Below, one piece after another: positions 23,187-60,079 of a stretch of DNA of 64,000 nt. Origin of the DNA: an uncultured archaeon (GTDB taxonomy: Archaea; Asgardarchaeota; Heimdallarchaeia; Heimdallarchaeales; Heimdallarchaeaceae); NCBI GenBank assembly GCA_964534625.1, contig CAZHRF010000013.1:1612-65611 (forward strand), in the 5' to 3' direction. Positions within the stretch are counted from its first letter, which is position 1. The number at the start of each line of letters is the position of its first letter. Made by a program: the position numbers and the translations under genes. The notes below the pieces were generated by a model. That model was given only the letters and a program-made list of their open reading frames with translations. It ran no database searches and was not told where the DNA came from.

Positions 23187-24719
23187 GTGAGAAAAGATAG
23201 TTCTGAATTAAGAGAAGAAATAAATATTTTAATCAAAGCAAGATATCCGATTCTTTATCTTGTGACACATGAAGAAGAAAGAGTAAGTCTGATGATTAAT
23301 AATATTGCGTCAGAAGCAGAAAAAAAAATAATTATCTGGACAACAACAGAGGGATTCAAAGATTTTAATGGTCAAGTAATAGATTCAGAAACAGTTGACC
23401 CTTTTGCGGCATTAAATTTTATAATAGATTACTCAAGACCTGCACTATTTCTTTTAAAGGACTTTCATCCATTTATGAAGGATGCCCTGATTATTAGAAG
23501 ATTGAGAGATCTAAAACCATATTTGAATAAATATAGAAAAACTTGCATAATTGTTTCTCCAATATTAATCATACCACCAGAATTAGAAAAAATGATAACA
23601 GTAGTAGATGTTGATTATCCAGAACTGGAGTTGCTGGGTGCGGTTCTAGAAGGGATAATTGAGCCACTAAAAGATAATCCAAAAGTGGATGTAACGCTAT
23701 CTGAAGAAGAGAGAGAACATGTGTTGAAATCAGCTTTGGGTTTAACAATAGAAGAAACAGAAAATGTTTTTGCAAAAAGTTTAGTTAAGGCAAAAAAATT
23801 CGACCCTAAAGTGATAATCAAAGAAAAAGAACATATTATTAGAAAAAGTGGTATCTTGGAATATTATCAATCAATAGAACAAATGGAAAATATAGGCGGC
23901 TTGGAAAATTTAAAACTGTGGTTGAAAAAAAGAACAAAAGGATTTACTGAGAAAGCTCAAAAATTTGGACTTCCTTTTCCTAAAGGATTAATGTTAATTG
24001 GTATAGCGGGATGTGGGAAAAGCCTTACAGCAAAGGCAGTTGCATCATTGTGGAATTTACCTTTGCTCAGATTGGATGTAGGGTCATTGTTTGGAGGTAT
24101 AGTGGGAGAATCAGAGAGAAATATCAGACAAGCAATTAAGTTAGCAGAATCGGTAAGTCCATCTATTTTGTGGATTGATGAAATAGAAAAAGGCTTTAGT
24201 GGGGTTCAATCAAGTAGCCAATTGGACGCAGGTACAACTGCAAGAGTTTTTGGCACTTTGATAACATGGTTACAAGAAAAAGAAGACCCTGTATTTGTCA
24301 TTGCCACAGCTAATAACATTAGTCAATTGCCACCAGAATTGCTTAGGAAAGGAAGATTCGATGAAATATTTTTCGTAGATTTACCTTCATCAAAAGAAAG
24401 AAAAGAAATCTTCAAGATTCACTTGAAAACAAGGGATAGAGATCCAAAAATATTTGATGTGCAAAAACTGGTGAGATTATCAAAAGGTCTATCAGGAGCT
24501 GAAATAGAACAAGCAATTATAGAGGGGATGTTTGAAGCATTTGCTGATGGGCGTGATGTGGAAACAACAGACATTATTGAAGCAATAGATAGTACTGTAC
24601 CATTATCGACATTGATGAAAAATGAAATAGCAGAACTGAGATCTTGGGCACAATCAAGAGCGAGACACGCATCAGTGGCAGAAGTAGAAGAAACAACAGA
24701 GTTGGACATAGAATTATAG
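23187..24719 (+). CDS. Classical-clade AAA+ ATPase, Ycf46-like, single AAA module with N-terminal domain
   Basis: GTG start 6 nt after SD gaggag (23175-23180). Walker [16 protein letters not shown], Walker [10 protein letters not shown], sensor-1/second region of homology [22 protein letters not shown]. Confidence 0.85.
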
Positions 24720-35299: not shown

Positions 35300-35395
35300 T
35301 AGACGTTACCGTCTCGAACCCATTGCTTGATAGGGTTTTGACAATAAGGTAGGTTGTTGTAACGACCAAGAAATGAGAAAAGGGGATATGAAAAC
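35300..35395 (+). mobile_element. Relic 3' half of an older MITE copy, interrupted by insertion of copy A
   Basis: cccattgcttgat...aagaaatgagaaaaggggatatgaaaac resembles the element body and right end (cccttgcttctg...ctaaatgaggggatgaaacac). The remainder, ctatac, follows the downstream target-site duplication at 35559-35564. Confidence 0.4.
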
Positions 35396-35550
35396 GTACG
35401 TTTTTCACCTCTATGAAACAATTGAAGGTTGACTGTTGGAGTGGTGTTCCATGAAATCTTTGTTTTTTTCTGAAATTACATTTTTCTTGTAAACACCCTT
35501 GCTTCTGTTTCTTTACTAGTTTAACCTAAATGAGGGGATGAAACACTTAC
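35396..35550 (+). mobile_element. MITE-like non-autonomous element, copy A (155 bp)
   Basis: Starts gtacgtttttcacc and ends ggggatgaaacacttac. The termini are imperfect inverted repeats. It is flanked by the identical 8-bp direct repeat atgaaaac at 35388-35395 and 35551-35558. Confidence 0.75.
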
Positions 35551-35608
35551 ATGAAAACCTATACTTATTTTGACAAAAAATCTTGAAAAAGAAAAGAAAG
35601 AGTTTTAT

Positions 35609-35962: not shown

Positions 35963-37660
35963 TTAGGTAAATATCTCCCTAACATTGCATGTTTTGTTAT
36001 AATGATTACAATATGCATCTATAATTTTCTTAATTAGGGCGATTAAAATATAATTCCAATATCTTACAGAATCTTTGTATTCAACAAATATGGATCTTGC
36101 TCTTTTATATTCATCAATCGTTCTATATTCTGAATTTTCATTGCGTATCGCTTCTTTTATATCATAATCTTTTTTTGTATAAAAGGATTTTACGACTTCT
36201 GCTATGCTTTTAATAGCTTTGGCAAATAGTATTGATTCAATCCATGAAATAGTGTTTCCTCTTATTTCCACATTCATCTTATTTATGTCAAATGCATCTT
36301 CATATAGTTCATCTTTATCAAATATGTCTTTGGTGTATGATCTTGCAATATTTTGTTTTCCTTGAAAAGCCATACTTAATTGTCCAAATTCCTTCATAGT
36401 CAGAATACGATAATTTTTTGGCAGACCTTTAAATTTTTCCACAGATCCAGACCTTGACTTTGTAGAATCCCAACCTCCTCTTTTATGTTCATAAAATATT
36501 GATATCGAATGATCCCCAAGCATGTTTTTAATTGGAAGATGTATGTACTCATCAGCCGATCTCATATCTAGTTTGTTAATAGGGTTTTGTGTGTTTGTAG
36601 CTTGGGCAATTTTCTGTTTCTGTTTTTCATCTTCTATAGGGATGATTTTTGCCCAAACGTTTATTCCCTCTTGTTTAATATCATTTAAAGCCATTTTGTT
36701 TTCTCTCATAAAATCTCTTACAGCATCGTGAATTGCCCAACAAGTTTGACATCCATTAACTATTTGTGGTTTTACTAATATAAATTCGCCATTAAATACT
36801 TCTTGCTCTTCAATAATAACTAGGTCACAAATGATGTTCAATCCATTGTTCAGTGTTTCTAGTTCGTAATTAATGTCACCATTAGCTTTATCTAATAATT
36901 CTTTAACTTCATCTTTAATCATTTTTCCAATTTTCGACCCTCTACTAGGTGGTAATCTGAATCTTAAATTTTTGAGAAATAGTGCATCATTATGGGACTT
37001 AAGTAAATCATATATTTGAGTGACATTAATTGGACTTAATACCAGTTTTATTTCCTCTTCATTGTTTTTTCTAAGTATCAGCGCCTCTTTTTCCGATTTT
37101 ATCTTAATCTCATCTGGTGGTTGTAAAAAATATGATTCTTGATACCTTATGATTTCTATTATATCCTCTTTATCGTAAATTTCGACATCATTTTGTTTTG
37201 CATTTAATATTGCATCATCATTTAATCTTCCAGTAACACATACGACTTTACGAATAAGTTTTAGGTCTTTTAACCTTTTATAATCGCCCCTTAAATCTCT
37301 AAAATCATTGTTGAGAACATCTTCATCACTCTCTAGCATTCTTATTCCATTTAGGAGTTGATCTATAGGTTCATTGTCAAATGTTGTGTCTGACGAGAGA
37401 TCAGAGTATTTGCATTGTACTAGTAAAATTGTGTCTTTTTCATCATCGATTACTCCAATATCTATTCCATGATCACCTGTTTGACCAAAAAAAATCCTTT
37501 CATTAGGGTCAATGCCAAATATGTTTTTTGTGGCCCATTTTTCAAAAATAAATCCTTTTTTCTCATTTGATAGGATTTCTTCATTGGGATAATACTCTTT
37601 ACCTAAATTATTAATAGATTCTTCAAAATCTTGTATTATTTGTTCATTAAAATTACTCAT
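35963..37660 (-). CDS. AIPR-family abortive-infection protein with N-terminal PD-(D/E)XK (Mrr-like) nuclease domain
   Basis: The N-terminus has GDHGIDIGVIDDEKDTILLVQCKY (D...QxK nuclease core). The central PQIVNGCQT is the AIPR hallmark. Confidence 0.7.
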   Translation of the reverse strand: MSNFNEQIIQDFEESINNLGKEYYPNEEILSNEKKGFIFEKWATKNIFGIDPNERIFFGQTGDHGIDIGVIDDEKDTILLVQCKYSDLSSDTTFDNEPIDQLLNGIRMLESDEDVLNNDFRDLRGDYKRLKDLKLIRKVVCVTGRLNDDAILNAKQNDVEIYDKEDIIEIIRYQESYFLQPPDEIKIKSEKEALILRKNNEEEIKLVLSPINVTQIYDLLKSHNDALFLKNLRFRLPPSRGSKIGKMIKDEVKELLDKANGDINYELETLNNGLNIICDLVIIEEQEVFNGEFILVKPQIVNGCQTCWAIHDAVRDFMRENKMALNDIKQEGINVWAKIIPIEDEKQKQKIAQATNTQNPINKLDMRSADEYIHLPIKNMLGDHSISIFYEHKRGGWDSTKSRSGSVEKFKGLPKNYRILTMKEFGQLSMAFQGKQNIARSYTKDIFDKDELYEDAFDINKMNVEIRGNTISWIESILFAKAIKSIAEVVKSFYTKKDYDIKEAIRNENSEYRTIDEYKRARSIFVEYKDSVRYWNYILIALIKKIIDAYCNHYNKTCNVREIFT

Positions 37661-37707
37661 TTGTCTGTTAGTTATTATTATATATATAAGTATTTTGTAT
37701 TAAACAT

Positions 37708-37771
37708 GTGCTACGTTTATTCCCTCTCCCTACTGTCTTTCAAGTCCTTTGAGCGGGGATGAAACACTTAC
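37708..37771 (+). mobile_element. Short or internally deleted MITE copy B (about 64 bp)
   Basis: gtgctacgtttattccctc...gagcggggatgaaacacttac keeps both end motifs of copies A and C. No clear target-site duplication. Confidence 0.5.
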
Positions 37772-59781: not shown

Positions 59782-59842
59782 AATCCCTCAGGAGAATATA
59801 CATTTATCTCTTAAATATTTATTGCCAAGTTATTTAAAAAAT

Positions 59843-59995
59843 GTACGTTTTTCACCCCCCTAAGAAACAGATGAAGGGGCACTGTAGTGTGGTGTTTCAG
59901 AAAACTTGATTTTGTTTATTCTTGCTTATTATCCGTACATAACCGTGTCTCGGTTTCATTCCTAGTCTCATCTAAGTAGGGGATGAAACACTTAC
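59843..59995 (+). mobile_element. MITE-like non-autonomous element, copy C (153 bp)
   Basis: Same ends as copy A, with 14 of 18 terminal positions inverted-complementary. It is flanked by the identical 8-bp direct repeat taaaaaat at 59835-59842 and 59996-60003, and lies 61 nt upstream of the NACHT start. Confidence 0.8.
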
Positions 59996-60079
59996 TAAAA
60001 AATCAAGATAAATCATTTGTTATTTCTTCTTTCAAATGTAAATTTGTATGAAGAAGACAGGATAATGATGAATCTTGGG

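Follow-up and report, generated by a model that had tools for sequence, protein, structure and literature searches.

A MITE family with 15 full-length copies, two of which lie in the DNA analysed here, occurs in the genome of an uncultured archaeon of the family Heimdallarchaeaceae, and is best explained, with a probability that we put at about 85%, as a deletion derivative of an IS66-family parent that was moved in trans and is now probably orphaned. The DNA in question, referred to below as the window, is a stretch of 64,000 nucleotides corresponding to positions 1612-65611 of contig C13 in a 3.37-Mb assembly of 120 contigs, with 32% G+C and an estimated completeness of about 90% (89.8%); the sample behind the assembly is a microbial mat metagenome from 2018. 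The top match of the SSU rRNA of this genome is the archaeal Rfam model (1333 bits), and genes for archaeal RFC and for ribosomal protein S8e occur in its relatives. Contig numbers given alone refer to this assembly (G000), those of other genomes carry a genome number, and coordinates given without a contig are positions in the window.

The two copies in the window, termed A and C, were first described in an initial annotation made from the letters alone, and the features on which it relied can be read directly in the DNA. Copy C is 153 bp long (59843-59995, plus strand) and copy A 155 bp (35396-35550, plus strand), the two being collinear from end to end, approximately 68-72% identical overall and near-identical over the first 12 and last 20 nt. 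The left terminal inverted repeat of copy C (GTACGTTTTTCACCCCCC, 59843-59860, plus strand) agrees at 14 of 18 positions with the reverse complement (GTAAGTGTTTCATCCCCT) of the right one (AGGGGATGAAACACTTAC, 59978-59995, plus strand), and the probability of at least 14 such matches by chance is about 1.7e-5 at this base composition. The right repeat matches the transposase-proximal end (IRL) of the insertion sequence (IS) remnants described below, and the left repeat probably represents the transposase-distal end (IRR) of the parent IS. Both flanks of copy C read taaaaaat, with the left target-site duplication at 59835-59842 and the right one at 59996-60003 (TAAAAAAT in each), and both flanks of copy A read atgaaaac, at 35388-35395 and 35551-35558 (ATGAAAAC in each). 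Copy C belongs to subfamily 1 of the family, and copy A to the divergent subfamily 4, in which it is 82% identical to the copy at C71:303-457. The copies mark two places in the defence island of the window as recently disturbed, and several copies lie in variable, defence-rich regions.

The initial annotation had further stated that the window holds no transposase. This stands for genes, of which there is none, but the minus strand carries at 37687-37771 an 85-nt truncated remnant of the transposase-proximal end of the parent IS (nhmmer with an IS 5'-end profile, E=2.3e-15), which runs from the IRL GTAAGTGTTTCATCCCC into the 5' UTR as far as a CGTAGCACAT block. The start codon of a 565-aa gene (35963-37660, minus strand) follows 27 nt downstream of the remnant. 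The product of this gene looks like an AIPR-like protein of the abortive-infection type, an impression gained by look alone; copy A is situated approximately 2.2 kb away on the other side, such that the gene is bracketed by relics of one element family.

Searches of the genome with BLASTN and an nhmmer profile bear out the claim of a new MITE-like family, returning 15 full-length copies, 152-155 bp in length and spread over 13 contigs, together with three truncated copies (C15:57778-57845, C4:121130-121199 and C61:5720-5770) that bring the contigs to 15 in total. The full-length copies are 61-100% identical to one another and fall into four subfamilies and one singleton, with the members of subfamily 1 being 96-100% identical. 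Between subfamilies the termini are 94-96% identical, compared with 69% in the interior, which is the pattern expected if only elements with intact transposase-binding ends amplify. All 15 full-length copies are intergenic and have no coding capacity, with stops in all six frames and no open stretch as long as 40 codons, in agreement with the earlier view of the element as non-autonomous. The MITE right end reaches approximately 12 times genome depth in the source metagenome. No copy was found in 60 relatives, among which there is no genome of the same genus, in JGI metagenome contigs or in the contigs of GTDB species genomes, so that as far as public data go the family is confined to one species-level lineage. 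A solitary left end on C61 was considered as a possible 3' end of the parent IS and rejected, being one of the truncated MITEs, located beside a nucleotidyltransferase/HEPN pair.

Transposition has left its record in the target-site duplications. A perfect 8-bp direct repeat stands directly outside the ends of 11 of the 15 full-length copies, with a different 8-mer at each copy, and when the right-hand 8-mer was shifted outward by 1-11 nt as an offset control none of the 15 gave a perfect match; the probability of a perfect match by chance is about 4e-5 per copy. The remaining four copies have no clean duplication. A and T make up 80% of the duplicated 8-mers, compared with 68% of the genome, and the form CAAAAKNG recurs in several of them. 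A spread of the copies through duplication of larger segments is contradicted by their unique flanks. One copy (C4:120973-121126) has been inserted across the tip of an older, truncated copy and has duplicated CTTACATA, which consists of the last five bases of the older element and three bases of its flank. Copy C is 100% identical over its 153 bp to a copy at C44:155-307, which has different flanks and a duplication of its own (CAAAAGAG), and because two identical copies occupy different sites the latest transposition must have been recent. Both sets of flanks of this identical pair are present in contigs of the source metagenome, where they occur as loose ends. The empty sites for which the initial annotation had proposed to search were not found: in Logan contigs of four runs, no joint skipping the element was seen for either copy C or its identical twin, a negative that weighs little because such contigs drop rare variants.

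The same duplications bear on whether the copies are products of transposition at all, or are instead structured small RNA genes or a regulatory repeat kept by the host, a reading that we regard as barely credible; the initial annotation had likewise set aside a structural RNA gene. The inverted repeats would let either strand form a long hairpin, but the folding z-scores (-0.57 and -1.58) are no different from those of shuffles. The consensus fold is made up of inverted-repeat pairs that do not vary; its covariation term is positive, and just one pair is compensatory. The suggestion that an internal ggtgtttca might pair with the 3' end to give a structured transcript was thus not upheld; this motif falls in the segment derived from transposase-coding sequence. 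Several copies lie 24-90 nt from the starts or ends of genes, as a regulatory repeat might, yet their orientation shows no bias relative to the neighbouring genes. The much better conservation of the termini than of the interior could also be read in favour of an RNA or regulatory function, but Rfam returned no match at the gathering score or at E<=1 for the window and three loci, and the copy-specific 8-bp duplications would be left unexplained.

Evidence on the parent of the family comes from solitary matches to the MITE right end, which led to a remnant of an IS at C26:34296-35083 (minus strand). At its tip this remnant has GTAAGTGTTTCACCCCC, followed by a leader of 91 nt and then a reading frame opening with ATG GGG GAG. 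This frame is interrupted by a stop and a frameshift and is cut short beyond them, with the result that only the N-terminal part of a transposase is left. The residual protein has a long coiled coil, rich in heptads, along with the motif KLKFYESPYHPLSK, the basic patch KRGG-KKGK and the first CxxC. The MITE end GTAAGTGTTTCAYCCCC is shared by the remnants on C26 and C47 and by that in the window at 37687-37771, and the end plus leader, with a CGTAGCACATA-ATTTATGGGGGA block, is present four times: C26 has two in tandem, and the others are at C47:103-227 and in the window. The outer of the two on C26 (C26:34953-35083) repeats the IS 5' end over 131 nt, at 78% identity to the first. No 3' remnant of the IS exists in the assembly for comparison with the MITE left end.

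The assignment of the C26 remnant to the IS66 family is transitive, running through its relatives, because the fragment itself has no direct match to an IS66 model in Pfam. Among 83 genomes of the class, relatives of the fragment were found in three. The closest (G002:C196), from the same family as the window's genome, is 36% identical by BLASTP (3e-21), including the part outside the coiled coil, and its gene starts 79 nt after GTAAGTATTCCACCCC, a near-identical terminus. A second (G040:C111) matches the fragment with E=3.8e-7, and in turn matches the NCBIfam 'IS66 family transposase' model NF033517 (2.6e-20), as do proteins on G045:C298 (1.8e-18) and G041:C286 (8.2e-58). The last of these is a full-length protein of 457 aa that scores 196 bits on NF033517, for which the cut-off is 180, and 1.9e-33 on PF03050; its gene is the sole ORF of a 1572-bp element (G041:C286:2389-3960) with perfect 18-bp inverted repeats (GTATACATTTACCCCCCT), at the ends of which contigs break. 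The C26 fragment is 27-38% identical to its nearest relatives and its coiled coil is unusually long. IS66 inverted repeats begin with GTAA (the 'GTAA' rule of the ISfinder family table); the MITE right end and the IS remnants begin with GTAAG, and the MITE left end with GTACG. As the start codon on C26 comes 91 nt after the end of the element, there is no room for the accessory genes tnpA and tnpB of classical IS66 elements, and the layout of the parent is, to judge from its sequence, of the single-ORF ISBst12 type of the IS66 family.

Several other candidates were met with in the course of these comparisons. DNA matches to the remnant in G002 and G003 proved to be lysine-rich, low-complexity sequence and not homologues. 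Two IS66-like proteins encoded by relatives of the same order, one of 421 aa (L044; G040:C150, 1354-2619) and one of 329 aa (L047; G045:C298, 1063-2052), match NF033517 over the N-terminal half only, have lost their catalytic motifs (for example VDET to IYHT), and no inverted repeats can be seen around them. Such proteins are transposases that have either decayed or been domesticated, and the one of 421 aa was rejected as a model of the parent on these grounds.

The relationship between MITE and remnant extends beyond a common end. The last ~55 nt of the MITE align with the first ~55 nt of the IS remnants, and MITE positions 42-105 are collinear with the transposase coding region on C26; in copy C this core (element positions 42-104) occupies 59884-59946 on the plus strand and is homologous to C26:34535-34598, or IS nt 355-418. 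In a search of the whole genome, the MITE profile matches C26:34528-34605 (nhmmer E=3.8e-6), inside the transposase frame and with order and orientation conserved. The core is approximately 75% identical to the remnant, and its local alignment with the C26 coding region scores 28.5, compared with a mean of 11.2 and an sd of 1.6 for shuffles; subfamilies 1-3 score 22.5-30 against the same region, with shuffle means of 11-12 and sd of 1.5-1.8. In the coordinates of the IS, two pieces are retained in the MITE: nt 1 to ~55 and the stretch nt 355-419, which encodes RRLWKENKQLQAKLKFYESP.

It is on this homology that the choice of parent family turns. IS66 had been named in the initial annotation within a list of families that give 8-bp duplications, and it is the one picked out by the remnants. 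That the MITE derives from another such family (IS256, ISL3, IS6, IS1595 or ISAs1), with its likeness to IS66 confined to a short common end, is very improbable because of the collinear homology to an IS66-like remnant. The likeness exceeds the 17-nt end, the subterminal ~55 nt also aligning, and the core aligns with the coding region of the remnant's transposase in the right order and orientation. While the C26 fragment lacks a direct match to IS66 in Pfam, and no intact parent was found, the remnant protein is homologous to proteins that match NF033517 and PF03050, and in a related genus GTAAGTATTCCACCCC stands 79 nt upstream of such a gene.

On the preferred reading of an IS66-derived MITE, a single-ORF element of the ISBst12 type underwent two internal deletions to give the MITE, which was amplified afterwards. 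The product is composed of ~41 nt of the transposase-distal end, ~64 nt of the 5' coding region and ~50 nt of the transposase-proximal end. An IS66-type DDE transposase would move such copies in trans by recognising the terminal inverted repeats GTACGTTTTTCACCCC and GTAAGTGTTTCATCCCC, and an 8-bp staggered cut at insertion would give rise to the 8-bp target-site duplications. At least four subfamilies were amplified at different times, with the latest event very recent. Of the parent IS the assembly retains only decayed 5' remnants, and the MITE family is therefore probably an orphan and immobile now, unless DNA that is not assembled supplies the transposase.

The initial annotation had proposed a search for an autonomous IS with the same ends, and the outcome was partial: decayed, IS66-like remnants do share the end, but no intact element was found. 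A profile search with PF03050 detected no IS66 catalytic domain in the approximately 90% complete assembly, and tblastn with three related transposases recovered only the C26 fragment; a weak match on C113 was rejected, as it is not a transposase. In four deep runs from the source mat, which cover the genome at 17-145x, the C26 remnant occurs in one contig at genome depth, and no second transposase 5' region was found at >=80% identity, a filter that the true parent might escape, given that the MITE core itself is only approximately 75% identical to C26. For subfamily 1, the unitig depths at the terminal 38-mers amount to 2-3 copies, which is the number assembled. The IS-end pattern has no match in JGI metagenome contigs, the informative N-terminal region of the C26 fragment has no close homologue in a set of 5.8 billion proteins by a word-based search, and nothing was found among related loci in GTDB genomes beyond the loci described above. 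It follows from these searches that the MITE's parent has been lost, or else has not been sampled.

These results also bear on whether the family might still be mobile, with a working transposase located in the unassembled ~10% of the genome, on an extrachromosomal element or virus, or in co-resident cells. Two copies that are 100% identical over 153 bp at different sites, and the 96-100% identity within subfamily 1, are what such a reading would lead one to expect, and an assembly in 120 contigs at 89.8% completeness leaves space for a missing element, particularly as multi-copy ISs are often lost from binned assemblies. We nevertheless consider present mobility unlikely: the assembly has no IS66 DDE domain, the four source-mat runs have no second transposase 5' region, the depths of the terminal 38-mers in subfamily 1 equal the assembled MITE copies and so exclude a further element bounded by those ends, and the contigs show no polymorphism between empty and filled sites. 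A further view, for which we see a slim chance, is that the MITE is being moved by a transposase that is not recognisably of the IS66 family or that resides on an unsampled virus or plasmid, or that its strongly conserved termini (95%, against 69% for the interior) are now kept for a host function in the variable, defence-rich parts of the genome that hold several copies. Its context is a combination of recent jumps with the lack of a cognate IS66 catalytic domain in the genome, the source community and public proteins. An orphaned derivative of an IS66-family parent remains our preferred account.

A number of unusual end structures and other repeats were noticed alongside the MITE family. At C15:57728-57794, GTAAGTGTTTCATACCCTAT is repeated three times with a period of 25 nt ahead of a truncated MITE, forming tandem transposase-proximal ends, and at C51:320-339 the 10-nt GTAAGTGTTT stands directly ahead of a MITE. 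Both C26:35077-35100 and C51:308-329 read TTAC-ATTTTAA-GTAAGTGTTT, in which two element ends meet head to head across a 7-nt spacer, an arrangement that recalls the junction between inverted repeats in a transposition intermediate, circular or dimeric, after its fixation in the chromosome. Two different MITE copies, on contigs C107 and C31, have both flanks in common: C31:1-108 matches C107:3339-3446 at 94% identity, and the 61 nt to the right of the C107 MITE correspond to C31:2082-2141 (98%). The two copies are 72% alike with an offset of 12 nt, C31 holds 1.8 kb more between the common flanks, and the C107 copy has no target duplication (comparison of C107:3339-3677 with C31:1-2141). These common flanks could reflect strain variants or a rearrangement between copies. 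Neither they nor the tandem ends and head-to-head junctions affect the verdict on the MITE.

A second and unrelated dispersed repeat, of at least 170 nt, is present in at least 13 copies that are 80-90% identical and end in ...CTGCCTAAAAAAACTCAT. It is found at C26:35090-35270, C1:14999-15170 and C38:28130-28299, three times on C27, and at the contig ends of C113, C94, C116, C104 and C34; its summed depth in the source metagenome is approximately 20 times that of the genome, and the C26 copy has no match in Rfam. Because several contigs break inside it, this repeat may be the end of another mobile element. On C4 a gene at 23726-24475, located 257 nt to the left of the MITE copy at C4:24733, begins MHVNVVVYVRVSTGDQ... 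and has the look of a serine recombinase or resolvase, and C4:22708 weakly resembles an element end (GTAAGTATTTCATCCCG); this part of C4 may be another mobile region.

The closest known systems are found in the ISBst12 group of the IS66 family, to which ISBst12 of Geobacillus stearothermophilus belongs. With this group the elements described here share imperfect repeats that begin with GTA or GTG and an 8-bp duplication, and their parent probably had the single-ORF IS66-type DDE transposase of ~450 aa as well, but they are themselves non-coding deletion derivatives of 153 bp, and their parental transposase is represented only by a broken N-terminal fragment. The element on G041:C286 shows the same repeat pattern, GTA..(A/T)TT.CACCCCC (GTATACATTTACCCCCCT compared with GTAAGTGTTTCACCCCC), a single transposase of 457 aa and a short 5' UTR, while its transposase is only ~30% identical to the C26 fragment and the sequence of its inverted repeats differs; no MITE derivative was seen in the G041 genome. 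An active member of the ISBst12 group, ISDge4 of Deinococcus geothermalis, has been studied experimentally and has a single transposase of 449 aa, imperfect inverted repeats (GTGACT/GTAACT) and an 8-bp direct repeat (PMC12898284).

MITEs as a class are well known from bacteria and archaea, and among the latter have been described in Sulfolobus (the SM elements), Halobacterium, Haloquadratum and Desulfurococcus (PMC10969869). Like the family presented here, these are short elements without coding capacity, present in multiple copies between genes and bounded by terminal inverted repeats and target duplications; they are mobilised by resident ISs (PMC10969869), and differ from the present family in host lineage and parent family. 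In a full-text search of the literature on Asgard mobile elements and archaeal ISs, which is not proof of absence, MITEs were mentioned only generically, with none reported for Asgard and no MITE derived from IS66. Both MITEs and IS66/ISBst12 elements with 8-bp duplications are thus known kinds, and it is the MITE family itself that is new.

The general understanding of transposition is unchanged by this family. For the assembly, the 15 copies account for several contig breaks and for a number of intergenic look-alikes, and the copies can be used as markers for telling strains apart. With the precise termini of the MITE (GTAAGTGTTTCAYCCCC and GGGGTGAAAAACGTAC), long-read genomes still to come can be searched for the autonomous IS66-type element that is missing here. 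For the organism and its relatives, the finding adds a MITE family, together with an identified parent IS lineage, to archaea for which ISs, viruses and integrated elements have already been published.
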